From the NCBI RefSeq assembly GCF_013122565.1, contig NZ_CP053258.1: 64,000 nt of DNA; one strand, 5' to 3'. The position numbers were made by a program, and so were the translations under genes. Positions 23,241 to 58,486 of this stretch are shown here, piece by piece (within the stretch, counting starts at the first letter, position 1; each line of letters begins with the position of its first letter). Below the pieces are notes generated by a model. That model did no database searches. It was not told the origin of the DNA and saw only the letters and a list, made by a program, of their open reading frames with translations. Origin of the DNA: Escherichia coli. Its GTDB lineage: Bacteria; Pseudomonadota; Gammaproteobacteria; Enterobacterales; Enterobacteriaceae.

Positions 23241-23384
23241 AACTGAAGTTGCCCTGAAAATGAAATTTTTTTGCACAACCGCAGAACTTTTCCGCAGGGC
23301 ATCAGTCTTAATTAGTGCCACTGCTTTTCTTTGATGTCCCCATTTTGTGGAGCCCATCAACCCCGCCATTTCGGTTCAAGGTTG

Positions 23385-23411
23385 GTGGGTTTTTTGTTGC
23401 CTGAAATTTAT
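23385..23411. repeat. attL core direct repeat gtgggttttttgttgcctgaaatttat
   Basis: 26/27 identical to copy at 58558..58584. Confidence 0.75.
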
Positions 23412-23784: not shown

Positions 23785-24885
23785 TCATTCCATTTCGAAA
23801 TCATCAATCCTCACTTCGAGCTCCAGACTGGTTGTAAAACCGTTATCGGGGCTGACGGTATGCGTCAGAGTCGTAATGGTCCATTCCGCATCATCTATCG
23901 GCTGTTTAAAGCCACTGACCTTCACAGGCATTTCTGTGTAGAGATCTGCCCGCCCTTCCGCCAGTTGTAGCGAGAATGATGCAACGCCGCGTTGCAGGCG
24001 TTCCCACTGCATTTTCGCTGCCCGTTCAGCGTTGCTCCGGTTGGCATAAGTGCGATTAAGTACCAGCACGTTTTCATCCGTACCCACCAGGTAATCGCCC
24101 TGCTTCGCTTCCGGCTCTTTCTTCTGCTTTGCGGTCCTGCGCTTACGCTTCACCGTGGTGCTTTCTTTCTTCGCGGGTTCGCGGGTATGCAACCAACTGG
24201 CAATTACGCCCGTATAGGCTCCGCGATCTGCCAGGGTAAAGCGGTGACTGTCGCCGTCCTTGCGTGTGATAGTGATCACCGGCAGAGGTTTACCGCTGGC
24301 GCTTTTGCCCTGTCCCTGCCGGATGAATAACAGATTGCCATTTTTCACCGACGCAATAGCACCGTACTGGCGCGCCAGCCGCATCAGAAAACTGCCGTCA
24401 CTCTCATTGGTCTGGTCTATATGTTCCACGGGCTTATCCGACAGGTCTTTACCCAGTGCCATCTTCAGCTTGTGCCGCGCGGCTATTTCCTTCACCACTT
24501 CCCCGACAGTGGTCTTGTGCCACGATTTTTCACGGCGGGTATTCAGCGTTTCCCTAAAATCAGCACTTCGCGCCCGGATAGTCAGGCGATCCGGTGCGCC
24601 AGTGTGTTCAATCTCGTCCACCGTGAATGCCCCTTTCGGGAAAAGCGGCTGCCCCTTCCAGCCCAGCGCCAGCGTGATGACCGCACCACGGCGCGGCAGC
24701 ACGATTTTTCCGTCGGCGTCGTCCAGCTCCAGATCAAGCTGGTCTGCTTCAAAGCCCCGATTGTCCGTCAACGTCAGACTCATCAGGCGGTTATCCAGCA
24801 CAGTGGTGATATCCTTCCCCTCAATACTGATGCTGAATGCGGGAGTTTTGTTGCATTTGTTAAGCAGTTCAGAGCTGAAATTCAC
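23785..24885 (-). CDS. D: tail protein D (late control gene D)
   Basis: 366-aa ORF at P2 gene D position; remembered similarity. Confidence 0.8.
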   Translation of the reverse strand: MNFSSELLNKCNKTPAFSISIEGKDITTVLDNRLMSLTLTDNRGFEADQLDLELDDADGKIVLPRRGAVITLALGWKGQPLFPKGAFTVDEIEHTGAPDRLTIRARSADFRETLNTRREKSWHKTTVGEVVKEIAARHKLKMALGKDLSDKPVEHIDQTNESDGSFLMRLARQYGAIASVKNGNLLFIRQGQGKSASGKPLPVITITRKDGDSHRFTLADRGAYTGVIASWLHTREPAKKESTTVKRKRRTAKQKKEPEAKQGDYLVGTDENVLVLNRTYANRSNAERAAKMQWERLQRGVASFSLQLAEGRADLYTEMPVKVSGFKQPIDDAEWTITTLTHTVSPDNGFTTSLELEVRIDDFEME

Positions 24886-25367
24886 GACAGCAGCCCTCCC
24901 ACCGTTTTACTGATATCGCTTAAGGCAGACGTTGCCGTATCCTGCAAATTATTCAGTTGAGTACTGAGATCACCGAACATATCGGACAGGGATTCATCCA
25001 CCCGTTTGAGCGACAGGGTAAACTCAATCCGGCGCGGCATACCATCGCGGAAAAACTCCGTTTTAGTCTGATTCAGTCCCTCAATCACATACATGCCGTA
25101 AATCGTGCCGCTGCCTTCAATCAGGGGCCATGCTTTTCCCTGTTCTGCCATCTGCTCCAGAGCCAGCAACGACAGCCTGCCGCCCGTTATCTCCGGCATA
25201 AGAACACCAGAAAGCGTCAGCATGTCGTTGTCCGGTCCCAGAAACTGCGTGGACGGACGACGGTTTACCCGGCTGTTTGCCGCATGTCGCCAGCTGCGTT
25301 GATACTGCAGTTCCTGATACGGAACGGTGCGCAGCATAAACGCGTACAATCCCAGCACCATCATCAT
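24882..25367 (-). CDS. U: tail protein U
   Basis: 161-aa ORF at P2 gene U position. Confidence 0.8.
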   Translation of the reverse strand: MMMVLGLYAFMLRTVPYQELQYQRSWRHAANSRVNRRPSTQFLGPDNDMLTLSGVLMPEITGGRLSLLALEQMAEQGKAWPLIEGSGTIYGMYVIEGLNQTKTEFFRDGMPRRIEFTLSLKRVDESLSDMFGDLSTQLNNLQDTATSALSDISKTVGGLLS

Positions 25368-28300
25368 GCGTCGTATCCCCCCTGATCGCTGTAGTTACTC
25401 CTGGCTTTTGCCTTCAGCCTGCGTTCACGTTCATCAAGCTGGCGTGCCACCTCCCGCGCAATATCCTGCGCACTTTGTCCTGGCTGCGTCTGAATGATGA
25501 TCTGCGTCGGTGCCTCAATCCGGTGAACGGGCGGCACAGTGGCTGCACGACTCACCATCGCTTCGCCGCCTTTCGCGGGAAGTGCCAAAGGATGCAACGG
25601 TGGAAGTTCTGCAGGCGCGGCAGCAACGCCCATCATTCCGGCAACAACGGCAGCCAGTGCAGCTGTATTTCTCCGGCTGGTCACATTTGCCGGGCCGTTA
25701 ACAATTTCCGGCCCGTTTTCACCGACGATGCCAAACTGCCCGCGCGGGATATAGCCGCCGCTGTCATACATCCCCGCAAAGCCATATCCCCATGACGGAA
25801 AACCACCCGATGGCATCATCACTTTACCGTCTGCATTCACCGTCGCAGGTTGCTGACGCGTCACTCTTTCCGGCAGTTTCGCCTTTGCAGCCTCTTTACT
25901 GACAATGCCGAGTTTCTCCAGCAACCAGGAAACGCCGGATTTCAGGGAGTCCAGCGGATGCATGACCATATTCAGCCCTTCCGCCAGTGCCTCCCCGAAT
26001 CGTCGCCCCATTGCCGCTGCGCTCTGCAGTTCGGCAGAGGTCGACTTAACGGGCGTCAGCAGATCAGTAAACCAGCCCCACAACGCCTGCACTTTGTCGC
26101 CAATCCACTGAAACACAGGCTTAAGTGGTTCGAATGCTGCACTGATGGGACCTGCCGCCGCTTTGAATCCTTCCACCACACCAGCGAGAAATGCGGTGAT
26201 GGGTTGCCAGTATTTCCAGACAACCAGCGCCACGCCCGCCAGTGCAGTAACCACAAGACCTATCGGACTGAGCAGAGCACCTAACAGACCAGATATGGCA
26301 TACAGGGCAACGCGCAGCATCGCCAGCGGACCGGATGCCAGTACTCGCAGCACCGAGCCTGCGGCAGCCAGTCCACCGCGTAGTGCTGCCAGTGGATTCA
26401 TAAACATCACAGCAACAGCACGTAAACCGGATAATCCAGACCGCAACAGTGCAACCGGCACACCTGCTACAGTTTTCAGGACATTCCCCGTCAGTGATGC
26501 CGTGCGGCGCAAAGACGACAACGGCGCAGTAAGTAAACCCGCTGCGTTGCCCGATGAAGCAAGCCCGCGTCGCAGCAGTGCCAGTGGAGCGCCAGCTAAC
26601 CAGGACAACGCGCTGCTGGTTCGTGTTACTGCTGCCGTAACGGAAGATAACGTTTTGATACCCAGCACAGAGAATCCCAGACGGATGACTGCCAGCGGCC
26701 CCAGCACTGCAGCCAGCGCCACCGCTAAGGTGCCGAGGCCTACGGTAACCGCAGCCACAACAGCAGCTACTTTCATCAGTGTGCCTGTCAGTTCCGGGTT
26801 AGCTTCCACCCAGCGGCGCAACGCCCCCGTGATGCTTTTCACCGTGTACAGAATATCCATCAGCGGCTGGCGCAGCATTTCGCCCAGGCTGCTGAAGGTG
26901 TTCTGCGCTCCGGTTTTGACCAGCAACCACTGAGCGGAAAGTGAGTCCTTGTTAATGTCGGATTCTTTCTGCATGGAACCGAGCGCATCATTGCCCGCTG
27001 TCAGTTTTAGCTGGCGCTGCAGTTCCGGAAGGTTGTTTGCCAGTTTCGCCGCATCATCACCAAACTCTTTACCAAACAACATGGTCATGGCAGACAGACG
27101 CTTGTCCTGCGGCAGTGCGTTCACCTTCTCCAGCACACGCTGGATAGTTCCCATCGCATCCTTCGTCATCTGCTTTTCAATCACTTCAGGATTGAGTTTC
27201 AGCAGATTCATCCCTTCAAAGAAACTCTTGCTTTGCATGGTGGCAATGGACAATTCACGCACCATCGCGTTTGCTGCACTGGCTGCAACCTCCGGCGCAG
27301 CGCCCAGTGTCAGAAAGGTGGAACCCAGTGCCGCCGCTTTACGATAATCCAGACGGTCAGCCACACCGCCCAGACGTTGCATCACATCAATGATGTCCGC
27401 CCCTTTCGACATGGCGTTATCATCCAGATAGTTCAGCGCATCGCCGAGCTGTTCAATATTGCGGGTTGGTATTTTGTAGAGCTGGGCGATTTTCCCCAGA
27501 CTTTCTGACAGTTCATCCGCTGGCAGCTCAAAGGCTGTTGCCGCCTTTGCTGCCGTACTGGCGAAGGCCAGCAGGTCACGTTTCTGGTCTTCCCAGCTGT
27601 CGTCAGGGTTTGCGACGTTCATGCGCGCACCACCTTCAACCAGTGCAGCGAAGTCCACCGCACCGTTTTCCATCGGCAACTGTTCGCTGGCAGCCTTGAT
27701 GGCATCCTGCATTTCATAAAAACGTGCAGTGCGGTTGCCATTATCGTCACGCAGACCATTGACCTGCTTTGCCACACCTTTCATGGCATCTTCCATGCTG
27801 GTATAGCTTTTTACTGCCGCCATCACTGGCGCACCCATTGCCAGCCCTGCAGCCGTGGTAGTGGCTCCGGCTCCTGCGATGCGATCGCGCACTTCAAGCC
27901 GTCTTGAGTATTGTTCTCTGGCAGCGTTCATCCGTGCCTGTTGTTCACCCAGACGTTTAAGTGCTTTTTGCTGGCCCTCCAGTGCCTGCCTTGTTTCTTC
28001 AGCATTTTTCTTAAGTTCTCGCTGGGCACTACTGAGTTGTCTGGTATCAATCCCTGATTCTTTAAGTGCCTGACGTTGTCTCTGGACCGCCCCCAACAAG
28101 CCGTTATAGGTCTGCTGAAGTTCCTGTACTCGTGTTTTGGCCTGACTGAATAACTTTGCCTGCGCGGCGGTTGGCCTGTTAGTGGCAGCAAATTGTGTGG
28201 CGAGTTTTGCCGCCTCTTCGCGGGCTGCGTTCAGGTTGTTGGCTGTTATGGCTAGTTGCGAGCGCGTCTTGCGAAATTCATCAATTCTGCCAGCCTGCTT

Positions 28301-28441
28301 ATTCAGTTCTTTGAGGCTGTTTCGGGTATTCTGAATTGCGCCAGCCAGCTCTTTCGAACTGGCCTGTGCAGCACGGAATGGGCGGGTGAGTTTGTCAACC
28401 GCATTAAGAATGACCTGCAGGCGCAGGTTATTATCACTCAT
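25364..28441 (-). CDS. T: tail tape measure protein T
   Basis: 1025-aa Ala-rich, coiled-coil and repeat-rich ORF; position between E' and U. Confidence 0.85.
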   Translation of the reverse strand: MSDNNLRLQVILNAVDKLTRPFRAAQASSKELAGAIQNTRNSLKELNKQAGRIDEFRKTRSQLAITANNLNAAREEAAKLATQFAATNRPTAAQAKLFSQAKTRVQELQQTYNGLLGAVQRQRQALKESGIDTRQLSSAQRELKKNAEETRQALEGQQKALKRLGEQQARMNAAREQYSRRLEVRDRIAGAGATTTAAGLAMGAPVMAAVKSYTSMEDAMKGVAKQVNGLRDDNGNRTARFYEMQDAIKAASEQLPMENGAVDFAALVEGGARMNVANPDDSWEDQKRDLLAFASTAAKAATAFELPADELSESLGKIAQLYKIPTRNIEQLGDALNYLDDNAMSKGADIIDVMQRLGGVADRLDYRKAAALGSTFLTLGAAPEVAASAANAMVRELSIATMQSKSFFEGMNLLKLNPEVIEKQMTKDAMGTIQRVLEKVNALPQDKRLSAMTMLFGKEFGDDAAKLANNLPELQRQLKLTAGNDALGSMQKESDINKDSLSAQWLLVKTGAQNTFSSLGEMLRQPLMDILYTVKSITGALRRWVEANPELTGTLMKVAAVVAAVTVGLGTLAVALAAVLGPLAVIRLGFSVLGIKTLSSVTAAVTRTSSALSWLAGAPLALLRRGLASSGNAAGLLTAPLSSLRRTASLTGNVLKTVAGVPVALLRSGLSGLRAVAVMFMNPLAALRGGLAAAGSVLRVLASGPLAMLRVALYAISGLLGALLSPIGLVVTALAGVALVVWKYWQPITAFLAGVVEGFKAAAGPISAAFEPLKPVFQWIGDKVQALWGWFTDLLTPVKSTSAELQSAAAMGRRFGEALAEGLNMVMHPLDSLKSGVSWLLEKLGIVSKEAAKAKLPERVTRQQPATVNADGKVMMPSGGFPSWGYGFAGMYDSGGYIPRGQFGIVGENGPEIVNGPANVTSRRNTAALAAVVAGMMGVAAAPAELPPLHPLALPAKGGEAMVSRAATVPPVHRIEAPTQIIIQTQPGQSAQDIAREVARQLDERERRLKAKARSNYSDQGGYDA

Positions 28442-28870
28442 CGTTGGCCCCGCTTCTCTGAATCGCTTTATACCGCCATTCCAGCACTTCGGTCAGCGGC
28501 ATAACGTCAGTAACGGATGGCGGCCAATGAAAGATGGTGGCGATATCAGCCACCAGATCGTCAACCGTCAGGCTGTCGGTAAACCGGCAAGTACCGACTT
28601 CTTCAACAAAAAAGTGACAACCTCAACCGACATAGCGGTGAGATCTGCCGGGTCCATCTCTGCAATTTCCTGTGCAGTCAGTGCCGGGCTGGAGATGCGG
28701 GGGATCACGGTCATCATCGCGTTCACATCCATATCCATAATAGCCTGCAGGCGTGTACCGCGCAGTGCACCGGACTGCGGTTTACGCAGCACAATTTCGG
28801 TGATTTCCGTTTTACCGCGCTTGATAGGGGTATCCAGTTGAATAGTCTTTTCAGTCTGCTTATCGCTCAT
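28434..28870 (-). CDS. E+E': E+E' fusion product via programmed -1 ribosomal frameshift (predicted)
   Basis: Slippery heptamer T_TTT_TTG (minus strand 28613..28607) in E frame; -1 frame stays open about 57 codons to TGA overlapping T start (gATGAGTGA). Confidence 0.6.
28568..28870 (-). CDS. E: tail assembly chaperone E
   Basis: 100-aa ORF ending ..VVTFLLKKSVLAGLPTA; contains slippery TTTTTTG. Confidence 0.8.
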   Translation of the reverse strand: MSDKQTEKTIQLDTPIKRGKTEITEIVLRKPQSGALRGTRLQAIMDMDVNAMMTVIPRISSPALTAQEIAEMDPADLTAMSVEVVTFLLKKSVLAGLPTA

Positions 28871-28924: not shown

Positions 28925-29440
28925 TCAAAGGCCGAGGGCGTTGCGGTGCGCTTCCATCAGGTCCACGCCGTCCACAATTTCCACCATGTTGATAAGGTCC
29001 ACTTCATAGAGCACCTCACCATTGATAGTCAGCTTCGCGTAGCTGTTGGTACTGGTCACTTTGGTGGTGTTGCTTTCGCCCGTCTTCCACTCGCCGGAAT
29101 CCACTTCTTTGTGACGTCCACGCACCACAAGCTCCACGGCCTGCACTTCTCCGGTATCGTCACGCTGGATAGAGCCGGTAAAGCGCAACTGGATGCCATC
29201 CACCGTGGCTTTGCCCATCTGCTTAAACAGCAGCAGTTCAGTACCACCAATGGAAAATTCTGTGTCCAGCGCACTGTCATCAAGCCCCAGATCCACATCA
29301 ACTGCACCAGGCATTCCGCCGCCGCGATACTTCTCATATTTGCGGGTGAATTTCGGCAGCGTCAGCGACTCTACGATCCCCTGCCAGTTGTTCCCGTCGT
29401 TAAACAGGTTCAGATGTTTTAATTTGCGTGGTAAAGCCAT
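28925..29440 (-). CDS. FII: tail tube protein FII
   Basis: 171-aa ORF at P2 FII position. Confidence 0.85.
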   Translation of the reverse strand: MALPRKLKHLNLFNDGNNWQGIVESLTLPKFTRKYEKYRGGGMPGAVDVDLGLDDSALDTEFSIGGTELLLFKQMGKATVDGIQLRFTGSIQRDDTGEVQAVELVVRGRHKEVDSGEWKTGESNTTKVTSTNSYAKLTINGEVLYEVDLINMVEIVDGVDLMEAHRNALGL

Positions 29441-29449
29441 GTTATCCCC

Positions 29450-30622
29450 TTACGCGCTGACCTGGCTGGCGAAATTCACCAGGTACTGATCGGTGATGCG
29501 CTGGCGCAGCATCAGATTTTCAAGTGGTGGCACTGGCGTGTAGTCATAGTCGATGGTGAGTTTTCCGGCTTTCAGCGTGTCTTTGTCGTTCACTGACTCG
29601 TCCAGCCAGCAATCACCACCAATGAGATAGCCCTGACTGACCAGGCTGCGCATTTTGGCGCGGATGCCCTCGATAATGTCGCGCGCCAGCGACGGGTTCA
29701 GCGGTTTGTCCACCGCCCACATGTGCGCTTCTGCCATTGTGTCCGTCAGCACCTGCGCCGTGCGGGTGTAGTTTTCGAAGGCAAAAAGCGGATCATCGCT
29801 CAGACAGCGGGAACCCCAGAAGCGGAAACCATCCTTGCGCACAAGCGTGGTGACGTCGTTCTGGTTAAGCAGTCCCGCATCGGTTGCCGGGTCCTGCAGA
29901 TCCCAGAACACATCAGCAGAAATTCCGGTGACACCGTTCACGCCCACGTTGGACAGGCTTTTGTGCCACCCGGTCTGCTCATCAATTTTGGCGCGCAGAC
30001 CGAGCGCACGAGCGGTGGCATATGCCGTTGCTTCGGCATTCAGCACCGTGTCCCAGCCAGTAAAGTCAGGCCAGATCAGCATCCCTTCGCGCTGGCTGAA
30101 GTTTTCGCGGTAAGTGATCGCCTCCTGCACTGTCTTGCAGCCATACGCTGACAGGTAAGCAAACCCACGCAGGCTTTGCGCCACTCTCAGCAACTCAGTC
30201 GCAACGGCTTTGTTATCGTGGCCTGGCACGCCGAGAATGCGCGGTTTAACGCCGAGCTGTAACTGGGCAGATAACAGAGCTTTCATGCCTGTTTTTTTAC
30301 CTTCAGCAGTCACTGCGCCGATGATATTGGTCGTGGTTTCTTCTTCCGTTTCCCCCTGCGGCACACGCACAACAACGGTCACGGGTTTTGCCTGGTCAGC
30401 GATGGCATCCAGCGAACGGGCCAGCGTGCCGGACTCACCCGCTTTACCGCTGGCAGTCAGCACATCAGTGATCAGCACGGGTTTATTAAGAGGAAACATT
30501 TTTGCATCGGCATCATCGCCCGTGCAGACCATACCCACGATGGCGGTGCTCACCGTGGTAATGGATCGGGTGCCTTCGTTGACTTCAACAACGCGCACTC
30601 CGTGGTGGTAATCCTGAGCCAT
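29450..30622 (-). CDS. FI: tail sheath protein FI
   Basis: 390-aa ORF at P2 FI position. Confidence 0.85.
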
Positions 30623-43263: not shown

Positions 43264-45030
43264 ATGAACACCACACTGACACCCGCAGATCTCGATCCCC
43301 GTCGGCAGGCCATGCTGCTGTACTTTCAGGGATACCGCGTAGCCCGCATTGCTGAAATGCTGGGCGAGAAAGTTGCAACCGTTCACAGCTGGAAAAAACG
43401 CGACAAGTGGGGTGACTATGGGCCGCTGGATCAGATGCAGCTCACCACCGCCGCACGCTACTGCCAGCTCATCATGAAGGAGCACAAAGAAGGGAAAGAT
43501 TTCAAAGAGATTGACCTGCTGGCGCGCCAGTCTGAGCGCCACGCGCGGATCGGCAAGTTTAACAATGGCGGCAACGAATCCGACTTAAACCCTAACGTCG
43601 CCAACCGCAACAAAGGCCCACGCCGTCAGCCGGAAAAGAATGTTTTCACCGATGAGCAGATTGAGAAGCTGGAAGAAATCTTCCATTCCTCCATGTTCAA
43701 CTACCAGCGCCACTGGTGGGAAGCCGGAAAAACCAACCGCATCCGCAACCTGCTGAAGTCACGCCAGATCGGCGCGACCTTTTACTTTGCCCGTGAAGCC
43801 CTGATTGACGCCCTGCTGACCGGACGTAACCAGATTTTCCTTTCCGCCAGCAAGGCACAGGCCCACGTCTTTAAGCAGTACATCATCGACTTCGCCAAAG
43901 AAGTGGAGGTGGAGTTGAAAGGCGATCCGATGGTGCTTCCTAACGGGGCCACGCTTTACTTCCTCGGCACCAATGCCCGCACGGCCCAGAGTTATCACGG
44001 CAACCTGTATCTGGATGAATATTTCTGGATACCGAAATTCCAGGAGCTGCGCAAAGTGGCTTCCGGTATGGCTATTCACAAGAAATGGCGACAAACCTAT
44101 TTTTCCACGCCATCCAGCCTGACACACAGTGCTTATCCGTTCTGGTCCGGTGCGCTATTCAACCGTGGGCGCAACAAAGCCGATAAGGTGGACATCGACC
44201 TGTCCCACAGCAATCTGGCCCCCGGCCTGCTGTGCGCAGACGGGCAATACCGCCAGATTGTCACCGTGGAAGATGCAGTGCGCGGCGGATGTAACCTGTT
44301 CGACCTCGATCAGTTACGCATGGAGTACAGCCCGGACGAATACCAGAACCTGCTGATGTGCGAGTTTGTGGACGATCTCGCGTCTGTGTTCCCACTCAGC
44401 GAGCTGCAGGCGTGCATGGTGGACAGCTGGGAAGTCTGGACCGACTTTCATGCACTGGCACTGCGCCCATTTGGCTGGCGCGAAGTGTGGATCGGTTATG
44501 ACCCGGCGAAAGGTACGCAGAACGGCGACAGTGCCGGATGCGTGGTGGTGGCACCGCCAGCCGTGCCGGGCGGCAAGTTCCGCATTCTTGAGCGTTACCA
44601 GTGGCGCGGGATGGACTTTCGCGCCCAGGCTGACGCCATCAAAAAACTGACCGAACAGTACAACGTGACCTATATCGGCATCGACTCAACCGGCGTTGGT
44701 CACGGGGTTTATGAGAACGTGAAAGCGTTCTTTCCTGCCGTCCGGGAGTTTGTCTACAACCCCAACGTTAAAAACGCCCTGGTACTCAAGGCCTACGACA
44801 TTATCAGCCACCGCCGTCTGGAGTTTGACGCCGGGCACACCGACATTGCGCAGTCATTCATGGCAATCCGTCGCGCCACCACCGCCAGTGGCAACCGCCC
44901 GACCTATGAAGCCAGCCGCAGCGAAGAAGCCAGCCACGCCGATCTGGCCTGGGCAACGATGCACGCACTGTTTAACGAACCGCTGCAGGGCGAATCCGCC
45001 AATACCAGCAATATTGTGGAGATTTTTTGA
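43264..45030 (+). CDS. P: terminase large (ATPase) subunit P
   Basis: 588-aa ORF at P2 P position. Confidence 0.85.
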   Translation: MNTTLTPADLDPRRQAMLLYFQGYRVARIAEMLGEKVATVHSWKKRDKWGDYGPLDQMQLTTAARYCQLIMKEHKEGKDFKEIDLLARQSERHARIGKFNNGGNESDLNPNVANRNKGPRRQPEKNVFTDEQIEKLEEIFHSSMFNYQRHWWEAGKTNRIRNLLKSRQIGATFYFAREALIDALLTGRNQIFLSASKAQAHVFKQYIIDFAKEVEVELKGDPMVLPNGATLYFLGTNARTAQSYHGNLYLDEYFWIPKFQELRKVASGMAIHKKWRQTYFSTPSSLTHSAYPFWSGALFNRGRNKADKVDIDLSHSNLAPGLLCADGQYRQIVTVEDAVRGGCNLFDLDQLRMEYSPDEYQNLLMCEFVDDLASVFPLSELQACMVDSWEVWTDFHALALRPFGWREVWIGYDPAKGTQNGDSAGCVVVAPPAVPGGKFRILERYQWRGMDFRAQADAIKKLTEQYNVTYIGIDSTGVGHGVYENVKAFFPAVREFVYNPNVKNALVLKAYDIISHRRLEFDAGHTDIAQSFMAIRRATTASGNRPTYEASRSEEASHADLAWATMHALFNEPLQGESANTSNIVEIF

Positions 45031-46064
45031 TGGGAAAGAGTAAGAAGAACCGAGCTGCGGCGACGAAACAGATCCAGCTTAAAAGTCAAACTACAGCCGA
45101 AGCATTCAGCTTCGGCGATCCCGTTCCTGTTCTGGACCGCCGAGAATTACTGGACTATGTGGAATGCGTACAGATGGACCGTTGGTATGAGCCGCCCGTC
45201 AGCTTTGACGGACTGGCGCGCACCTTCCGCGCTGCAGTGCATCACAGTTCCCCGATTGCAGTAAAGTGCAACATTCTGACCAGTACCTACATCCCTCACC
45301 CGCTGCTCAGCCAGCAGGCTTTTTCACGTTTTGTGCAGGACTATCTGGTATTTGGTAACGCCTACCTGGAGAAACGCACGAACCGATTCGGTGAAGTTAT
45401 CGCCCTTGAGCCTGTGCTGGCAAAATACACCCGACGCGGGTTAGACCTGGATACCTACTGGTTTGTGCAATACGGCATGACTACACAGCCGTATCAGTTC
45501 ACGAAAGGCAGCATTTTTCACCTGATGGAACCGGATATCAACCAAGAGATCTACGGCCTGCCCGGTTATCTTTCTGCCATTCCGTCAGCCCTGCTCAACG
45601 AGTCCGCCACGCTGTTCCGCCGCAAGTATTACATTAACGGCAGCCACGCAGGCTTCATCATGTACATGACCGACGCCGCGCAGAACCAGGAGGATGTAAA
45701 CAACCTCCGTAACGCGATGAAAAGCGCCAAAGGACCAGGCAACTTCCGTAACCTGTTTATGTACTCGCCGAACGGCAAAAAGGACGGGCTTCAGATCATC
45801 CCATTGTCTGAAGTCGCGGCAAAGGATGAGTTTCTGAATATCAAAAATGTTAGTCGCGATGACATGATGGCGGCACACCGCGTGCCGCCGCAAATGATGG
45901 GGATTATGCCTAATAATGTTGGGGGGTTTGGGGATGTGGAGAAAGCGAGTATGGTATTTGTGAGGAATGAATTAATTCCTCTACAAAGGCGTTTAGAAGA
46001 GCTTAATTTGTGGCTAGAAGAGGAAGCCATAAAATTCAAACCATACAATTTATCAGATAATTAG
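45027..46064 (+). CDS. Q: portal protein Q
   Basis: 345-aa ORF overlapping P stop, P2 Q position. Confidence 0.85.
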   Translation: MMGKSKKNRAAATKQIQLKSQTTAEAFSFGDPVPVLDRRELLDYVECVQMDRWYEPPVSFDGLARTFRAAVHHSSPIAVKCNILTSTYIPHPLLSQQAFSRFVQDYLVFGNAYLEKRTNRFGEVIALEPVLAKYTRRGLDLDTYWFVQYGMTTQPYQFTKGSIFHLMEPDINQEIYGLPGYLSAIPSALLNESATLFRRKYYINGSHAGFIMYMTDAAQNQEDVNNLRNAMKSAKGPGNFRNLFMYSPNGKKDGLQIIPLSEVAAKDEFLNIKNVSRDDMMAAHRVPPQMMGIMPNNVGGFGDVEKASMVFVRNELIPLQRRLEELNLWLEEEAIKFKPYNLSDN

Positions 46065-46108: not shown

Positions 46109-47869
46109 CTATATGCTGCATATTTTTTTATAATGTTCAAAAACATCTTTAAAAGTGTTGAGTATTATTTCAAAACCACTAAAATCAACTTTTCGTTTTT
46201 TATCCCTAACTACTTTCACAGAGAAAACATGTTTCCCATATTCAGTTTTTGAGTCCCCATCGTTCTTTTTGTTAAATTTTTTACCACCAAGAATAGTTGA
46301 TAATACATCATGAGTAAAAAGATCTTCCATCGCAGTCTGCTCACCAGTAGCACTTAAAGGCGTTAGAATGATATAGAGATTTTTAAAGACATGGATAAAT
46401 CTCATTTTTCTCATTTTATTGGTATCATCGGGGCAGCTCTTAACATTATTTTTAAGGAAATTCAAAATCTCATTAGAACCAGAATCGTTGTCCAATACCA
46501 TGATAACCGGGTGCTTAGGAATGCTTCCATAGTAGCTTGAATATTCATCCATATATCTTTCGATGAATTTTTTAAGATCTGCGCTACCTCCAGACATATT
46601 AATAAAATAACTTGACTTCTCATCAGATTTAAAAATATTCAAGTTGATATCATTTCCTTTACCGTCTGTGCTTTTCTTGAGCAACTCAGGAAATTTGGCA
46701 GAAAGTGAACGAATAGCTGATTTTAAATATACTCGATCAGTTTTGCCTTCTGTCAAGATTGTCGGGGAAGCATGTCCATGAAAAAACTTGTAGTAAATAA
46801 ATTTACTATATGCCTTCTCTCGTACATTCAGCTTTAACCTGTAGTTTTTTAATGTAATATGAATAGGCGCATATTTTTCAGGCTGTTTACTTATTTTATC
46901 TTGTATGTTATTAAATTTATCAATCTGGTCAATAAACCCAAATCTTCCCTCTAGTTTTTCGATACTCCCCACGACTAGCTTACCATCTTCATCAGGTAGC
47001 TTATATTCTCCCTTACTATAAAGTGAATGAGCTAATGCTCTTGTTTTATTCGAATATTTCCTATCAACGTTAACAAATCTATTTATAGTAAGTCCCGTAA
47101 CTTCTTGTCTCGTGGATTTGTACGAGATCCTTGTTTTAGCATCATTAATATCAAAACCAGCACGTTTTATTTCACTGACAAGAATGCTCCCCAAGACAAC
47201 CCCCTCAGGAAGAGATATTGCCAAATCGGTAGGAAATTCTTTTTTATTAGTTGAAAACGTGATGTCATCGGCATAACGACTATATGAACAACCTAAACTC
47301 TTTGCTAATTTAGCTAATCTAATATCCATAATGCTACAAATTAAGTTTGTTATCACTGGAGAACACGGGCTACCCTGAGGCAAACTTCCCTTATAGCATG
47401 CGGCTTTAGCTAAAGTAGTGGCGACAATCGGATTTAATAAGAAATCCCTATTGGATAGGAAGTACCCTCTCACTCGCCCAAAATTAAAGCTTTTGAAAAA
47501 ATCCTTAAGATCAATATTGAGTATTATATTTTTCCCACGATGTCTGAAAGCATTGGAAATTATTGACTTATTTCTTTCAAAACCAAAGGAGTAATTGTTT
47601 TTAATTTTTTTAATTTTGAAAGTTTCATCTCTACACTCCATTAAAAGATCGGCTATTCGTCTTTGGAGATCTTTCAAACTATCTTCTGGCGCAGAAATCA
47701 ATCTGACTCCCTTACCTTTTTTTGGAATAGAGAAATCTTTATACTGATTATCAGTACCAATTCTGTAAAGAATATTCGTTAAAAACACCAACTTAACATC
47801 TAGCAATTTTGCCAAGTCAGCACGAGATGCTGCGACTTTCAAAAGTAGTAATTTAGAAGTTGCGACCAT
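46109..47869 (-). CDS. ret: retron-type reverse transcriptase with C-terminal Toprim-like domain (Ec67/Retron-Eco2-like)
   Basis: 586-aa ORF; RT motifs [12 protein letters not shown] and YADD; C-terminal ..ILTEGKTD.. and ..VLDNDSG.. resemble Toprim E and DxD motifs; about 33% GC. Confidence 0.8.
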
Positions 47870-47908
47870 AATTATATTTTATCGTAGAAGTTAGTAAGAG
47901 AGGAAGAA

Positions 47909-48037
47909 CGCATGTAGGCACTCCTTCGCACAGCACAACGGCCCTATAGCGACGAAACAAGGATGTCAGGGATGCGATTCCACCTGCCATTAAAATCACT
48001 GGTTGTGATACACAACCAACAAATCTGCCTACATGCG
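47909..48037 (-). ncRNA. msr-msd: putative retron msr-msd non-coding RNA
   Basis: 12-bp perfect inverted repeats cgcatgtaggca (47909..47920) and tgcctacatgcg (48026..48037) flank a 105-nt region 40 nt upstream of RT start; G follows a1; internal hairpin ggttgtg-ata-cacaacc. Confidence 0.5.
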
Positions 48038-48105
48038 CATAAATGAAACTACCATTTCAACGTCTTCATTTCCAGTAATATATTTCAAATATCTACACTG
48101 AGCGC

Positions 48106-48124
48106 GCGCTCGTATCCCCGCCAC
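48106..48124 (-). other. putative cos (cohesive-end) site
   Basis: Minus strand GGCGTGGCGGGGATACGAG; first 13 nt match the P2/186 cos 5' motif GGCG(A/T)GGCGGGGA as I remember it. Confidence 0.4.
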
Positions 48125-48158
48125 GCCTGCCCGCTTTATGTAGTGGTTTTCATGCAGG

Positions 48159-49639: not shown

Positions 49640-52054
49640 TTAATACAGGTTCCGCCACTTATCATCTTCCTGCAAACGCTGGTTCCGATAGAAGATACGC
49701 AGGCCTGCTCCTGACGGAATACTGCCGCCGCGAAGGAGTAAATCGACCTCTTTCTCGCTGCCATCAAATCCTCTGGACTTCAGTTCATAGACGAGCTGCT
49801 GTCGCTGATGGTCTGTAATTCGCTGTTTGTAGTCTTTACGCCGTTTCGGTTTCACCAGGCGTAACCTTGCAGCCAGTTCCCGGCGCTCTTTTTTGCTCAT
49901 ACTGTGCAGGTATTCGTGCAACTCCTTGTCATCCATGCGGGTAATGTCCGTTCTGGTATCCCCATCAGCTGATTTGTCTTTCCCTTGTTGGTTCAAATTT
50001 TCAGCAAGGGGACAGTTATTGCCACGAGTCCAAGGGGCGCAAGCGCCCTGGTCGGCTACCGCCTCCTGAACGTCAACGGCTTTACGAACCATTTTCCACT
50101 TCACTGCATGAGTGCAGATCTTGCCCTCTGCAATGGGTGACCAGATGCCATAAATACGAATGCCGTGATCGCCATAGGCGGTCGGCTCTTCGTTAATTTC
50201 ATAAGCAGTTCTGATGAGGTGATATTTGCGGGGAACCAGTACGCCGCCCTGCTTCATGATGTAAGTGGCAAAACAACCAGCATCAGCAGCAGCCAGGATT
50301 GCATCAAGGCGCGGGTTATCCAGTACCGGCGCACCTGCTTTTTTGTCCCCCTGTTGCCTTGCCGCCTGACCAGCCAACAATCGCAGTTCACGGTAAGCCT
50401 GACGCCCCGGAATGCCAAAGAAGCGGAATTGCTGAACACGATGCAAAGACGCCCAGGCATTCACGTATTCAGCGTTATCACGCAGAGATTTACCCGTTTC
50501 CTTGCTGATCTCGCCAGCCAGACCACGCCCGTCAATGTTCTTACTGATGTATTTCGCGATGTAGCTTGTTGGCGTACCTTTGCGCGGGTTTATCAGCTCA
50601 GACTTAAAGCGTGGTCCCGTGTTATTACCCAGCTCCTCGCGGTCTTCACGAATGGCAAACTTACGCAACAAAGCAGTAATGGCTCGGCGATCTTTTTTGC
50701 GCATAAAACACAACAGGTGCCAGTGCACTGTACCGTCATGATGCGGCTCAGCCACCCGCACGCCATACCAGCGCAATCCGGCTTTGTGCATCGCTTTACG
50801 AAATGCAGCAAACATGCCGACCAGATAATCACTGCTTTGTCTTACCGTCGCGTTTGTCCAGGTCGGGTTTGGTCTGCCGTTATTTAGCGTGGAATGGAAA
50901 CGTGACGGACAGGTGATGGTGTAGAAAACGGCGCAGTCACCGCGCATTTCCGCGATAAGCTCCAGACCTTTAACACAGGCCATCATCTCATTGCGGCGAT
51001 GCGCAGGGTTGCTGCTGCTGGCGTTTACCACGTCTTCCATATCCAGCGTGTCGCCGTCTTCGTTCACCAGTTCATGAGAACGAAAAAACTCCAGCGACTT
51101 ACGGCGCTGCTCACGTTTATGCATCACGGCTTCATAGCTGACATAGGGAGATGCTTTTTTGCTGACCAGGCAGACAGCGCGCAACTGCTCTTCCCGCCAT
51201 TCGCAACGCATCTTCCATAATTTCCGATACCACCAGTCGGCGCACAACATACGCGCCAGCGAACCCGGAATGAGTTCATAGGGCACGGGTTTACGGCGGT
51301 TTCTTTTCCGGCGGAGTTGCTCAAACGCAGGTGGGATGACATCCAGTCGCAGGGTTTCTGCTGCCACCCTTTCCCATGTCTTGCGGATTTCTTCTGGCTT
51401 AACGTCATCGGTGGCATACAAATCGCCACAAGCTGCATCAAGGCACATGCTCATATGCGCAGCTACCAGGGTGGACAGGCGTTTCACCTGATCCTGACTC
51501 ATTTCAGGCAGGATCAGCAGGCCGTCCAGCCCTTCCTGGCTCGCCATAAAGCGAAAAGCAGTGGATAGCTGACTGTCGCGTACATGCTCCAGCCGTTCCA
51601 GACATGGCTTAATCGTCTCACGCAAATAGCGGGAATAAGCCTTTGGCCTGCCCAGGCTGCTGAAGTATTCAATACGTTGCATCAGCGGCTTGCTGATATG
51701 GGAAGGCTGGGCGTTAACGTCCGCCAGAATGACCATGTCTGGATTAAAACGCTGCTGCTCATGCGCCAGCTTTGCCCGGCTAATGAGCTTATCCTGCTCT
51801 ATTTCGCGTTGGACAGGATCACGGGATTCATTAAAGAAATAACGCTCCCAGACCTGATCACTCAGAGCCTCGCGGCGCAGTTGTTCCTGCTCGTTATCGG
51901 CAGCGTACAGAGTGATCAGGTTTGAAAGCGCAGAAACCGGCGCAACTTCCGCCGGGTCCAGATAAGGGTTAATGGCCTTTTTCGGGCTGTTCCATGAGAA
52001 TGCTGCGGCGACCTCGTTAAAGCCGCTGCAGTTGTTCATATCATCATGGCTCAT
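49640..52054 (-). CDS. A: replication initiation protein A (rolling-circle nickase)
   Basis: 804-aa ORF at P2/186 gene A position. Confidence 0.85.
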
Positions 52055-52908
52055 GCACGCACTCCGTACATGGCAGAACTATCCACGCCACGCGAAGGAT
52101 CAAATCCCACCCAGCAGCGCGCCCCGGAAACAGCAATGATTTCTGTTGCAGATTTACTCTCGCCAGCCGACACGCCGATGCTGCGTTTTGCCTTGATGTA
52201 GTGGTGAGTGAAATTGCGATACAGCGAACGAATCAGGGATGTGTCACTGTTAGAAACAATGACCGGATGTCCTTCAGATGCTCGATGTTCAAGAACGGAT
52301 GCCAGGTGATACTGGTCATCTTCAGTGAAACCATCAGTGTGATAGCCGGAAAACGTACCGTCATACGGCGGATCGCAATACACCACATCCCCCGCCTTCA
52401 ACATCGCCAGCGTTTCATCAAAGCTGGCGCAGATAAACGTTGCCCGCTGGGCTTTTTCTGCAAATGCGCGAATTTCTTTTTCAGGGAAATACGGATTTTT
52501 ATAATTACCGTAGGGAATGTTGAAATGCCCGCTCTTGTTATAGCGACATAAACCACGGTAACCGTGACGATTGAGATACAGGAAATATACCGCTTTCATG
52601 AAATCAGTAATTTCAGTGGAGTAATTAAACTCCTGCCTTATGTTGTAATAAGCCACCTCCCTGTTTGCGATCTCAAATAAAACTCTGGCGCGAGATATAA
52701 ACGATTCACAATCAGCGGCAACCTTTTTATAGAGGTTGATTAAATCAAGATTAATATCCGCAACCAGATAGCTTGGATAATCCGTCTCCATCATCACAGC
52801 ACAGGAACCCGCGAAAGGTTCAACCAGTCGCGGGCCAGCAGGAAGGTGTTTTTTCAGTTCGGACATAATTGCGGTTTTATTTCCCGCCCATTTCAGGATG
52901 GTGCTCAT
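52051..52908 (-). CDS. DNA adenine methyltransferase (Dam-like, phage-encoded)
   Basis: [11 protein letters not shown]..., DPPY catalytic motif, [16 protein letters not shown]; resembles E. coli Dam. Confidence 0.85.
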
Positions 52909-53132
52909 ACAGCACCTCCGTTGTAATGTTTGCCTTTCAGCTCTGCGATTTCCTGACAGGTAATGCAAAGCTGCACTCCCGGAATGGCGCGGCGTCGTGC
53001 TGGCGGAATTGGCGCTTCACATTCAATGCAAAGTACGCGTGACACGCCCGGTGATTTGGCACGGGCTGCACGGATATGGCGCTGGCGTTCTTCTTCAACG
53101 CGCTGCTGTACGAGATCCATTGCATCAGCCAT
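52905..53132 (-). CDS. TraR/DksA-family C4 zinc-finger protein
   Basis: 75-aa ORF with CIECEAPI...CITCQ. Confidence 0.7.
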   Translation of the reverse strand: MADAMDLVQQRVEEERQRHIRAARAKSPGVSRVLCIECEAPIPPARRRAIPGVQLCITCQEIAELKGKHYNGGAV

Positions 53133-55054: not shown

Positions 55055-55651
55055 ATGTCAACATCAAAGTACCCAAGTGAGATCAAAATAAATCCCAATA
55101 AAGGTGGTAAGGCTGCGATTGAGCGATTAGTCGAAGCCTATGGCTTTACGACACGACAGGCTTTAGCTGATCACTTGGAAGTATCAAAAAGCACACTAGC
55201 GAACAGGTATTTGCGGGATACATTTCCTGCTGACTGGATAATCCAATGTGCTCTTGAAACAGGAACCTCCCTCAAATGGTTAACTACCGGACAAGGCCTT
55301 AAGCAAAGCTCGCTGACAGCAGCTACAGAAGAGCTTGTTAAGTTTCGCCTTGCCGCAGGCAAAATGATTGAAGACGGTTCATATGTCTTCGATTCATCAT
55401 TTCTTCCTGCAAACCTTTCATCACCAATTGTTATTCAGGATGGACTCGTCACATACATTTGTGATCAAAAATTTTCTGAAGTACTTGATGGAAACTGGTT
55501 AATCAATATCGACGGAACCTATTCCATTCGAAAAATCACAAGGCTTCCTAAAGGAATGATTAAAATTACAACAGCAGAGAATAGCTTTGAATGTGCATTT
55601 TCTGATATTGAAGTGGTTGCTTGTATAAGAAGTACAATAGTCTCGAATTAA
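55055..55651 (+). CDS. cI: CI-type immunity repressor (186-like)
   Basis: 198-aa ORF, HTH N-terminal region; divergent from lytic operon. Confidence 0.75.
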   Translation: MSTSKYPSEIKINPNKGGKAAIERLVEAYGFTTRQALADHLEVSKSTLANRYLRDTFPADWIIQCALETGTSLKWLTTGQGLKQSSLTAATEELVKFRLAAGKMIEDGSYVFDSSFLPANLSSPIVIQDGLVTYICDQKFSEVLDGNWLINIDGTYSIRKITRLPKGMIKITTAENSFECAFSDIEVVACIRSTIVSN

Positions 55652-55671: not shown

Positions 55672-57348
55672 ATGAATTCATTTGCCATCGTTATACTCTT
55701 ATTAGCATTTCTCGCCCCTGTTCTAGCTGTAATATTATTTAAACAAAGTAAAAAACACAAAGCGGCTATAGATAACCTGACAGCTAACAACATAGCCCTT
55801 TCTAACCAACTGATTGAAAATCAAGAAAAACTAGCACAGACCGTACGAGAATTATCAGATCTTGAAGGGCGAGCAGCACCATTGTGGCAATACGAAGAAT
55901 TGCACAGCGCAGTAATGGATGCAGAGAATAAGATAAAAAATGCGGACTCAATAGCCAAGCAAAAAATAGATGAAGCCCAAATTAAGGCGGCTAAAACAGT
56001 AAACGAAGCAAATTATCAAGCTCAGATAACAATAAGCAACGCTAATAGCGAAGCTATAGCAATCACCAAAGACGCTCGCGATGCACGCCTGAAAGCCAAA
56101 GAACGTCTTGATAATGCTAATAATAAAGCAAATGAGCTAATCTCAAATGCTAATGACAATGCAGTAAAAATTATTTCTGATGCAGAAGAAAGAGCAAAGG
56201 AGATTGCTGGTTCAGCATATGAAGCTAAAGAGTTTGCAGAAAAATATGAAGCAGTTGCAAAATCAATGAAAAATAAAATTGAAGGTTATGGTGATGAATG
56301 GATCATCCCTAACCGTAGTGTACTTGATGAGCTGGCAGAAAATTATGAATTTACAGATGCAGGCAAGGAATTACAAAAAGCCAGAGAGTTAACCAAATCA
56401 TTAATAAAAACTAATAAAGCTGCTTCGTGTGATTATGTTGAGCAAAACAGGCGTAATACTGCCATAAACTTTGTTTTGGATGCCTTCAATGGAAGAGTTG
56501 ACAGTATTTTATCAAAAGTCAAACACAACAATTTTGGAAAACTTTCCCAAGAAATAAAAGATGCATTTCAACTAGTAAATTACAATGGCTCTGCCTTTAG
56601 GTCCGCAAAAATAAGTGACATCTATCTTCAGGCAAGACTCAACGAGCTAAAATGGGGTGTAGCAGTTAATGAAATTATGCTCGAAGAAAAAGAAGAGCAA
56701 AGAAGGATTAAAGAACAGCTTCGTGAAGAGGAAAGAGCTCGTAGAGAATATGAAAAAGCGATAAAAGAAGCTGAAAAAGAAGAAAAAGCTATTCAGCAAG
56801 CTATAAATAAAGCAACGAAAGAACTTATGCTTGCAAATGAAGAACAACGCTTAGCTTTAGAGCAAAAAATAGCTGAACTACAGTTAAAATATGAAGAAGC
56901 TGAAGCTAAAAATCAACGAGCTATTTCTATGGCTCAACAAACCAGATCAGGCCACGTCTATATCATTAGTAATATTGGTTCATTTGGCGAAGATGTATAT
57001 AAAATTGGAATGACACGCCGCCTTGAACCACTTGATCGTGTTCGTGAACTCGGAGATGCTAGTGTTCCTTTTTCGTTCGATGTTCATGCGATGATTTATA
57101 GTGATGATGCACCATCATTAGAAAACCATCTGCATAAAGTTTTCAACGAAAAGCAGGTCAATAAAATTAACTCACGAAAAGAGTTTTTTAACGTAAATTT
57201 AAAAGAAATCAAATCAGTTATTGAAGACATGAACATCAACGCCCACTGGACAATGTTTGCAGAGGCGAAAGAATATAGAGAGTCTCTAGCTATTGAGCAG
57301 GAGCGCAAAGCAGCCACTTCCGCCAACGATGAACTACATGTTGCTTAG
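55672..57348 (+). CDS. membrane-anchored coiled-coil protein with C-terminal T5orf172/GIY-YIG-like domain
   Basis: 558-aa ORF; N-terminal TM; long coiled-coil repeats; C-terminal GHVYIISN...YKIGMTRR...RVRELG; about 37% GC; between cI and int. Confidence 0.65.
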   Translation: MNSFAIVILLLAFLAPVLAVILFKQSKKHKAAIDNLTANNIALSNQLIENQEKLAQTVRELSDLEGRAAPLWQYEELHSAVMDAENKIKNADSIAKQKIDEAQIKAAKTVNEANYQAQITISNANSEAIAITKDARDARLKAKERLDNANNKANELISNANDNAVKIISDAEERAKEIAGSAYEAKEFAEKYEAVAKSMKNKIEGYGDEWIIPNRSVLDELAENYEFTDAGKELQKARELTKSLIKTNKAASCDYVEQNRRNTAINFVLDAFNGRVDSILSKVKHNNFGKLSQEIKDAFQLVNYNGSAFRSAKISDIYLQARLNELKWGVAVNEIMLEEKEEQRRIKEQLREEERARREYEKAIKEAEKEEKAIQQAINKATKELMLANEEQRLALEQKIAELQLKYEEAEAKNQRAISMAQQTRSGHVYIISNIGSFGEDVYKIGMTRRLEPLDRVRELGDASVPFSFDVHAMIYSDDAPSLENHLHKVFNEKQVNKINSRKEFFNVNLKEIKSVIEDMNINAHWTMFAEAKEYRESLAIEQERKAATSANDELHVA

Positions 57349-57430: not shown

Positions 57431-58486
57431 ATGGCAGTACGAAAACTAACCACAGGGAAATGGCTTTGCGAATGTTACCCCGCCGGACGTAGCGGACGCC
57501 GTGTGCGTAAACAATTCGCCACCAAAGGCGAAGCACTGGCCTTCGAGCGATACACCATGGGGGAAATAGAAGCAAAGCCCTGGCTGGGCGAATCAGTGGA
57601 TCGTCGGACACTGAAAGATATGGTTGAGCTATGGTTCAAATTACATGGCAAATCTCTTACTGCCGGACAGCATGTCTACAACAAGCTGCTGTTGATGGTT
57701 GACGCCTTGGGAAATCCCCTTGCAACTGATCTCACCTCAAAAATGTTTGCTCACTATCGCGATAAACGCCTTACTGGTGAAATCTACTTCAGTGAAAAAT
57801 GGAAGAAAGGAGCAAGCCCAGTTACTGTTAACCTGGAGCAAAGCCATCTAAGCAGCGTTTTCAGAGAACTTTCCCGCCTGGGTGAATGGACACTTCCAAA
57901 CCCATTAGAGAAGATGCGCAAATTCACTATCGCAGAAAAGGAAATGGCATGGCTTACACATGAGCAGATTATCGAATTACTGTCTGACTGCAAACGTCAG
58001 AACCCAATTCTGGCACTGGTGGTAAAAATATGTCTAAGTACAGGCGCACGTTGGCGAGAAGCAATCAATCTTACCCGCTCACAGGTCACCAAGTACCGAA
58101 TCACCTTTGTGAGAACGAAGGGGAAGAAAAACAGAAGCATCCCTATCAGTAAAGAGCTTTATGAAGAGATCATGGCGCTCGATGGGTTCAATTTCTTCAC
58201 AGACTGCTATTTTCAATTTTTATCCGTGATGGAAAAAACGTCTATCGTTCTCCCTCGCGGTCAACTGACACACGTTCTGCGCCATACGTTTGCGGCGCAC
58301 TTCATGATGTCGGGTGGAAACATCTTGGCCTTACAAAAAATTCTCGGACACCACGATATAAAAATGACTATGCGTTATGCGCATCTGGCACCGGATCATT
58401 TGGAAACGGCGCTCCGTTTCAATCCACTGGCAACGTTACCAAATGGCGACAAAGTGGCGGCAGCGGTTGGCATTACCCCGCAATAA
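57431..58486 (+). CDS. int: tyrosine integrase (P2/186 family)
   Basis: 351-aa ORF with R..HxxR..Y catalytic pattern (TGARWREA...LRHTFAAHF...MRYAH). Confidence 0.85.
   Translation: MAVRKLTTGKWLCECYPAGRSGRRVRKQFATKGEALAFERYTMGEIEAKPWLGESVDRRTLKDMVELWFKLHGKSLTAGQHVYNKLLLMVDALGNPLATDLTSKMFAHYRDKRLTGEIYFSEKWKKGASPVTVNLEQSHLSSVFRELSRLGEWTLPNPLEKMRKFTIAEKEMAWLTHEQIIELLSDCKRQNPILALVVKICLSTGARWREAINLTRSQVTKYRITFVRTKGKKNRSIPISKELYEEIMALDGFNFFTDCYFQFLSVMEKTSIVLPRGQLTHVLRHTFAAHFMMSGGNILALQKILGHHDIKMTMRYAHLAPDHLETALRFNPLATLPNGDKVAAAVGITPQ

Follow-up and report, generated by a model that had tools for sequence, protein, structure and literature searches.

The tail operon of a Fels-2-like prophage in Escherichia coli (contig NZ_CP053258.1) very probably contains a P2-type (E/E+E') programmed -1 ribosomal frameshift, by which the tail chaperone gene E would give rise to both the short protein E and a longer fusion protein, E+E'. 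The P2-type frameshift site at this locus is real, conserved, and already known, i.e., an ordinary textbook case; what we infer for this particular prophage are the slippage and the production of E+E', the efficiency of the process, and the chaperone roles of the two products. A programmed -1 site in the tail chaperone gene E had been proposed in a first-pass annotation of the window, which is the whole stretch of 64,000 nucleotides that was analyzed here, and the proposal is borne out by the matches of the two reading frames to PF10109 and PF06528, by the position in the operon, and by the identity of the site with that of phage P2.

Anatomy of the E/E' locus

The locus comprises the following features, with positions given in the window and in the direction of transcription.

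28870..28568, minus strand: gene E, an ORF of 100 aa (10.9 kDa) with an ATG start
28613..28607, minus strand: slippery heptamer T_TTT_TTG, in the X_XXY_YYZ phase of the E frame
28607..28434, minus strand: E', the -1 extension, with 57 sense codons and a TGA stop
28606..28568, minus strand: dual-coding zone, holding the last 12 codons and the stop of E and the first 13 codons of E'

The ATG of gene E is preceded by an AGGA 8 nt upstream, and the gene ends with a TGA at 28570..28568. At the heptamer, the zero frame reads ACT TTT TTG, with the first T of the heptamer as the wobble base of ACT, and 12 sense codons lie between the heptamer and the E stop, just as had been claimed for a T_TTT_TTG in the E frame near its 3' end. 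The -1 frame measures 62 codons from stop to stop, opens just upstream of the heptamer, and is closed by the TGA at 28436..28434; its open stretch after the heptamer, previously estimated at about 57 codons, amounts to exactly 57 sense codons. The predicted fusion E+E' (145 aa, 16.1 kDa) spans 28870..28434, and these are exactly the limits that the first-pass annotation had set. Its predicted junction peptide is ISSPALTAQEIAEMDPADLTAMSVEVVTF[L/F]VEEVGTCR, and the predicted E'-specific peptide is FTDSLTVDDLVADIATIFHWPPSVTDVMPLTEVLEWR; the predicted tryptic junction peptide and the E'-specific peptide are both long.

The downstream gene T starts with an ATG at 28441..28439, and its ORF shares 8 nt (ATGAGTGA) with the -1 ORF. 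The stop of the -1 frame had been described as overlapping the T start codon; the overlap with gene T holds, but the TGA covers T codons 2 and 3 and leaves the ATG untouched. It had also been pointed out that a list of single-frame ORFs misses E', and indeed only the 100-aa E is listed, together with no minus-strand E' ORF of at least 40 aa.

Protein families and operon context

Gene E encodes a protein that matches PF10109 (Phage_TAC_7) at 1e-18 (67.5 bits; cutoff, 25 bits) and phrog_103 at 4e-44. The -1 peptide of 57 residues matches PF06528 (Phage_P2_GpE) on its own at 4e-19, covering profile positions 1 to 37 of 37, and E' matches phrog_1756 at 2e-22. The Pfam model Phage_P2_GpE in fact describes the E' half rather than E. 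The neighboring tail genes were assigned as follows, and the PHROG tail families are consistent with the Pfam assignments.

29450..30622, minus strand: gene FI, tail sheath protein, at the head of the operon (PF04984, PF17482, PF22671)
28925..29440, minus strand: gene FII, tail tube protein, directly upstream of E (PF04985 Phage_tube, 9e-60)
25364..28441, minus strand: gene T, tape-measure protein of 1025 aa (PF10145 PhageMin_Tail, 2e-18)
24882..25367, minus strand: gene U, tail protein, downstream of T (PF06995 Phage_P2_GpU, 4e-44)
23785..24885, minus strand: gene D, baseplate hub or tail protein, last gene of the FETUD operon (PF05954 Phage_GPD, 2e-27)

The order of the operon is thus FI-FII-E-E'-T-U-D, all on the minus strand, with FII (tube) and T (tape measure) as the genes on either side of the E/E' pair.

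Comparison with known frameshift systems

The reference record of phage P2 (NC_001895; P2p25/P2p26) joins the two parts of E+E' into a single CDS by way of a -1 frameshift. P2 and the prophage have the identical heptamer T_TTT_TTG in the identical phase (the zero frame of P2 is GGT TTT TTG), an E' extension of 57 codons, an 8-nt overlap of E' with T (ATGAGTAA in P2 versus ATGAGTGA here), and the order of the tail genes in common. The earlier statement that the arrangement is that of P2 E/E' is hence supported by heptamer, phase, and T overlap alike. Alignment with P2 E+E', which had been suggested as a check, was carried out; the predicted fusion is 48% identical to its P2 counterpart (E = 2e-50), without gaps across the junction, and the identity of E with P2 E is 43.7%. 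The two loci nevertheless differ in several respects: the DNA is too diverged for an alignment with blastn, the codon before the site is GGT in P2 and ACT here, a modest hairpin located 8 nt downstream of the site in the prophage is absent in P2, and E has 91 aa in P2 versus 100 aa here because the zero-frame tail after the site comprises 6 codons in P2 and 12 in the prophage.

Direct orthologues with 83 to 97% DNA identity over the locus are found in Fels-2 (STM2699/STM2697.1), in Salmonella phage RE-2010 (E/E'), and in the Felsduovirus-like Escherichia phage Cartapus. The locus is 97% identical to that of Cartapus and 83 to 85% identical to those of Fels-2 (84%), RE-2010, and SEN8 (Felsduovirus, Peduoviridae), and the host element is a Fels-2-like (Peduoviridae) prophage. 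Fels-2, RE-2010, and Cartapus have the same heptamer, ACT codon, 12-codon tail, 57-codon extension, and T overlap, and they differ from the prophage only by point substitutions, most of which are synonymous in the -1 frame. The record of Fels-2 states for E' that it "forms functional gpE+E' if translational slippage occurs."

The G/GT tail assembly chaperones of lambda follow the same logic and occupy the same position as E/E+E'. They are reportedly the subject of studies by Levin, Hendrix and Casjens in 1993 and by Xu, Hendrix and Duda in 2004, 2013, and 2014, and the 2004 study is said to describe a conserved tail-assembly-chaperone frameshift of which the P2-type E/E+E' is a subset. In P2 itself, the E/E+E' frameshift was reportedly demonstrated by Christie et al. 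in 2002 (J Bacteriol 184:6522), with an efficiency said to be about 10%; in the same work, E' is reported to be essential, and P2 genetics are said to have shown that it is expressed as an extension of E. In lambda, the tape measure is a binding partner of both G and the G portion of GT, the major tail protein is recruited by the T domain, and the ratio is 30:1 (PMC5009743). Shifting of the P2 type is 2- to 3-fold more efficient than the 1:30 of lambda (PMC5009743).

The dnaX gene of E. coli (tau/gamma) is likewise a bacterial case of -1 tandem slippage on a homopolymeric heptamer, A_AAA_AAG, and it shares with the E site an upstream Shine-Dalgarno (SD)-like element, which at the latter is an RAGG. 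In dnaX, the upstream SD-like element is combined with a downstream hairpin, and about 50% of the ribosomes shift. The stimulators of dnaX are experimentally proven and strong, whereas at the E site the RAGG is 7 nt away and confounded with coding, and a significant conserved hairpin is absent. The two systems also differ in purpose, which is truncation in dnaX and extension in E/E'.

Conservation among relatives

Relatives were picked by the zero-frame E protein alone (tblastn, 419 phage records), and 20 loci spread over the ranking were combined with P2, Fels-2, RE-2010, and the window into a comparison set of 24 loci. The identity of E in this set ranges from 31 to 100%, and the loci come from Enterobacteria, Burkholderia, Ralstonia, Pseudomonas, Vibrio, Shewanella, Zymomonas, and Haematospirillum. 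An in-phase X_XXY_YYZ heptamer, located 2 to 22 codons before the E stop, is present in 24/24 loci, and it is followed in every one of them by a -1 ORF of 51 to 73 codons whose peptide aligns with E'. In about two thirds of the loci, as in the prophage, this ORF extends up to or into the next gene (T), and in the remaining ones it ends 25 to 40 nt before the next annotated gene; in the Mannheimia record, the gene after the -1 ORF lacks a tape-measure annotation.

The heptamer has the form T_TTT_TTN in 22 of the 24 loci, and the two nonhomopolymeric versions are those of a Mannheimia phage (G_GGA_AAG) and of Escherichia phage 520873 (A_AAT_TTT). All 22 loci with a T run have kept the wobble T of the preceding codon, be it a codon for Thr, Gly, Leu, Asn, Ser, or Pro, which is a synonymous-site constraint. 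The -1 peptides of the 24 loci share the motif vDDl.ADiA.iFHWpPs....m.l.EL..WRe.A..RSG; the zero-frame tails after the site are unrelated in both length (2 to 22 codons) and sequence. In the E'-only zone, from the E stop to the T start, the substitutions in DNA-alignable relatives are distributed as 96/60/215 over positions 1/2/3 of the -1 frame codons. Of the five relatives compared, four have an amino acid identity to the window of 0.85 to 0.90 in the -1 frame versus 0.62 to 0.71 in the other frames, and the corresponding values for the Yersinia relative are 0.66 and 0.36 to 0.39. Judged from these sequence comparisons, the -1 frame is under purifying selection.

The site (79 T6G, 1 T6A) and an intact -1 ORF are also preserved in 80/80 near-identical loci on viral contigs, which have an identical E protein, are uninformative on divergence, and served as a population check only. 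A -1 frame that is not conserved among relatives had been named as the observation that would speak against the site; the 24/24 and 80/80 loci clearly show the opposite.

The motif as such carries little of this argument. The window contains 30 copies of TTTTTTG versus 22.4 +/- 4.7 expected, and its ORFs of 100 aa or more contain 81 in-phase canonical heptamers, after 15 of which the -1 frame stays open for at least 40 codons; many of these cases belong to spurious antisense ORFs. Taken by itself, the heptamer lacks significance, and the significance of the site stems from homology and conservation rather than from the motif.

Alternative explanations

A fusion of the same length could also originate from transcriptional slippage, i.e., from an RNA polymerase that stutters at the T6 run and thereby lengthens a fraction of the mRNAs by one U, whose standard translation would result in a Phe-Phe-Val junction. 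This origin is very unlikely, even if the homopolymer run is found at the site in 22/24 loci, the product would have the same size as that of ribosomal slippage, and database proteins with 7-T and 4-T runs (P0052, P0058) indicate that the run is prone to indels at least in sequencing or assembly. The run comprises only 6 T, and efficient transcriptional slippage in bacteria generally needs runs of about 8 to 9 or more A/T. Moreover, the relatives with G_GGA_AAG and A_AAT_TTT fit tandem tRNA slippage and not a stuttering polymerase, and the P2 site is treated as one of ribosomal slippage in the literature (PMC3091744, PMC5009743). Alongside the ribosomal frameshift, transcriptional slippage on the U6 run might make a minor contribution.

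According to a second alternative, E' is an independent small gene that is initiated at the GTG at 28553..28551 and encodes a free 39-aa GpE family protein without any frameshift. The stand-alone CDS annotated by PGAP and in several GenBank records corresponds to this interpretation, and the codon at the position of the GTG is ATG or GTG in 16/24 loci. In the other 8 loci, however, it is a nonstart codon (GCC, GCT, TGG, GAG, ATT, or ATC), in 6/24 loci the stretch of the -1 frame from the heptamer to the conserved motif is devoid of any ATG, GTG, or TTG, and an SD-like sequence is missing before the GTG of the prophage (CGACAGCCTGACGGTTGACGATCTG). The conservation of the -1 peptide does not begin at this codon but reaches upstream to the heptamer (vDDL; within the clade CRFTDSLTVDDL), and in 24/24 loci it is exactly at the heptamer region that the -1 frame becomes open. 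The fusion is also plausible as a single protein; its AlphaFold2 model is confident (pLDDT, 91.4; pTM, 0.82), and one helix (residues 74 to 92) runs continuously through the junction. For P2, E' has been summarized as being expressed as an extension of E (PMC3091744). On the sequence evidence, the missing SD, the start-less relatives, and the upstream conservation argue strongly against an independent initiation of E', which is thus highly improbable.

Finally, the chance frequency of the heptamer in the window and the 15/81 heptamers with at least 40 open -1 codons would be compatible with a fortuitous combination of heptamer and open frame, or with a relic in a decayed prophage from which nothing functional is made, but this reading is effectively ruled out by the match of the -1 peptide to the full PF06528 profile, the conservation in 24/24 and 80/80 loci, and the third-position bias of the substitutions in the -1 frame, and the prophage moreover appears complete.

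Candidate stimulatory elements

Two candidate elements flank the heptamer of the prophage.

28598..28575, minus strand: candidate 7-bp hairpin, 8 nt after the heptamer, present in the Fels-2-like clade only
28624..28621, minus strand: candidate SD-like GAGG, separated by 7 nt from the heptamer that follows it, at the spacing of the RAGG in some relatives

A conserved RNA structure downstream of the heptamer was not found in 45-nt folds of the 24 loci (mean z = -0.38; 2/24 below -2), and the 100-nt fold downstream of the heptamer in the window is not significant (z = -0.93). The region of the candidate hairpin is no better folded than its shuffles (z of -0.5 to -1.2), and the six sequences of the clade exhibit one compensatory event, from U-A to C-G in the Klebsiella relatives, and a broken helix in the Yersinia relative. 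With shuffle z-scores near chance and a single covariation event, downstream structure was rejected as a conserved stimulator. A significant conserved structure 5 to 9 nt downstream of the site, as characteristic of structure-stimulated -1 frameshifting of the dnaX or IS911 type, is accordingly missing at these loci. In P2, the 100 nt downstream are unusually well folded (z = -3.3), but the helix in question is located at a distance of over 50 nt from the site, and the 45 nt next to the site have a z of 0.02. The absence of a conserved downstream structure agrees with the description of P2-type frameshift sites as lacking one (PMC3091744). Since no significant stimulatory structure was found, the frameshift efficiency in the prophage is not predictable.

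Upstream of the heptamer, an RAGG at a spacing of exactly 7 nt occurs in 10/24 loci, namely, in the window, RE2010, Fels-2, P2, two Klebsiella phages, KS5, a Ralstonia phage, PSP3, and 186. A stimulatory function of this element would be a lead only, inseparable as it is from the conserved E/K-V codons. It is conceivable, if rather unlikely, that the hairpin at 28598..28575 and the RAGG tune the E:E+E' ratio in the Fels-2-like clade differently from P2, whose site is reported to be stimulator-free; as a lesser option under the same heading, a part of the fusion protein could be derived from transcriptional slippage on U6.

Proposed mechanism of the ribosomal frameshift

In the programmed ribosomal frameshift that we favor, translation would start at the ATG of E (28870), and most ribosomes would terminate at the E stop and release the 100-aa chaperone E. 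A minority would slip back by one base at ACU UUU UUG, where the tRNA-Phe in the P site would move from UUU to UUU, and the tRNA-Leu in the A site from UUG to UUU, unless only the P-site tRNA slips, at a time when the A site is still empty. As a counterpoint to the first variant, re-pairing of tRNA-Leu(UUG) onto UUU in the A site is imperfect at the wobble position. Residue 88 of the fusion would be Leu after simultaneous slippage and Phe after P-site slippage. The slipped ribosomes would read 57 further codons in the -1 frame and synthesize the 145-aa E+E' as the minor product, and E' would be translated only as the C-terminal part of E+E'. A conserved RNA structure would not be needed for this process, for which the U-rich heptamer seems to be largely sufficient.

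The roles of the two products are established for P2 and for lambda G/GT, and by analogy both would be needed here at a fixed ratio for the assembly of the tail. The shared E part may coat the tape-measure protein T, and the E' domain may recruit the tube protein FII; neither E nor E+E' would be expected to end up in the virion.

Distribution, annotation, and further genes of the prophage

The prophage carries genes for integrase, CI, CII, the replication protein A, portal, terminase, capsid, and tail, and it looks complete. The E/E' locus was found in 991/5426 complete E. coli genomes. In the RefSeq/PGAP annotation, E' is a separate 39-aa "GpE family phage tail protein" that starts from the GTG, and many phage records contain the same stand-alone 39-aa CDS. 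As a consequence of this annotation as a free-standing protein, the true 145-aa product is missing from the protein databases. The correct annotation is a joined CDS on the minus strand (28870..28607 plus 28607..28434) that replaces the two ORFs. With respect to biology, the site adds nothing new, and the orthologous site of Fels-2 has already been flagged in GenBank; its practical value lies in the annotation, where the error in RefSeq is systematic and affects about 990/5426 complete E. coli genomes at this locus alone.

Several other genes of the prophage were noticed along the way. One of them is an RT-Toprim gene of a type I-C retron, preceded by a 13-bp inverted repeat that is a1/a2-like, and an Rfam search yielded no match to a retron noncoding RNA upstream of the reverse transcriptase gene. 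A PD-Lambda-1 defense gene is located between cI and int, and a further gene encodes an orphan methyltransferase of the Dam type. The end of the prophage is adjoined by RybB.

Annotation of E' in public records

The gene portion E', which RefSeq/PGAP names "GpE family phage tail protein" and which we read as the C-terminal part of the E+E' fusion, is often presented as a separate ORF of 37 to 51 amino acids, e.g., at 3448..3567 of locus L001 (NZ_CP025048.1), with equivalent free-standing calls in loci L002, L085, L088 to L092, L100, L101, and L103. The annotated start of these stand-alone ORFs is any ATG or GTG on hand, and the calls are a systematic annotation artifact. In several other records, namely, those of VP58.5, 2F1, 3LV2017, Mae-JY29, and Haematospirillum, E' lacks any annotation. 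Among the records compared, the frameshift is recorded only for P2, PSP3, and KS5 and partly for 186 and Fels-2.

Public assemblies also contain E-E' fusions of 136 to 145 amino acids in a single ORF, represented by the database proteins P0052, P0058, P0020, P0071, P0016, and P0074, all relatives of the product of window 28434..28870. Some of these ORFs result from indels in the T-run (seven T giving "TFFVEE," four T giving "TFVEE"), and others from indels lower in the overlap zone. They may represent homopolymer sequencing errors or true mutants that yield the fusion alone.

RNA folding downstream of the P2 heptamer

In phage P2, the 100 nt located 3' of the heptamer (locus L004, 1186..1285) fold with a z score of -3.3, which none of 200 shuffled sequences equaled. 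A long helix, over 50 nt away from the heptamer, accounts for this value; the fold of the first 45 nt is unremarkable (z = 0.02). The distal helix of P2 has no counterpart in the window.

Other genes of the prophage

Three further genes of the prophage and one repeat were located in the window:

46109..47869 (-), reverse transcriptase, 586 amino acids (PADLOC RT-Toprim_I-C, 6e-213)
48038..48026 and 47920..47908 (-), perfect 13-bp inverted repeat upstream of the reverse transcriptase, within 47870..48130
52051..52968 (-), D12-class N6-adenine (Dam-type) orphan methyltransferase (Pfam, 2e-75; PADLOC oMTase, 3e-111)
55672..57348 (+), DUF4041 and T5orf172/MUG113 protein, 558 amino acids (PADLOC PD-Lambda-1, 3e-120)

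The reverse transcriptase is predicted from its profile match to be that of an Ec67-like type I-C retron, and its gene occupies the cargo hotspot known from the P2 family, with the portal gene (45027..46064) on one side and replication gene A (49640..52054) on the other. The inverted repeat looks like the a1/a2 arms around msr-msd and is a candidate for this element; an Rfam search for a retron noncoding RNA upstream of the reverse transcriptase returned no match. The retron cargo was not found in related phage records, where the query matches the shared backbone over the first ~100 nt only. The methyltransferase gene adjoins gene A, and a Dam methylase has historically been reported alongside retron Ec67. 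The PD-Lambda-1 gene, which has the gene for the CI repressor (55055..55651) on one side and that for the integrase (57431..58486) on the other, would constitute a second defense cargo site of the same prophage.

T/U junction and prophage end

Two further features were noted:

25376..25382 (-), second in-phase heptamer, G_GGG_GGA, three codons ahead of the T stop
23320..23398 (+), RybB small RNA gene (Rfam, 104 bits)

The tail gene U (161 amino acids) is in the -1 frame relative to the tape-measure gene T, and the start and stop overlap in ATGA at 25367..25364, so that a slip at G_GGG_GGA, if it occurred, would create a T-U fusion. However, T and U of phage P2 are separated by a 14-nt gap instead of this overlap, and the heptamer is therefore probably a coincidence. 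Since rybB is situated ~390 nt past D (23785..24885), the final tail gene, the prophage ends beside rybB, and its attachment site probably adjoins rybB as well.
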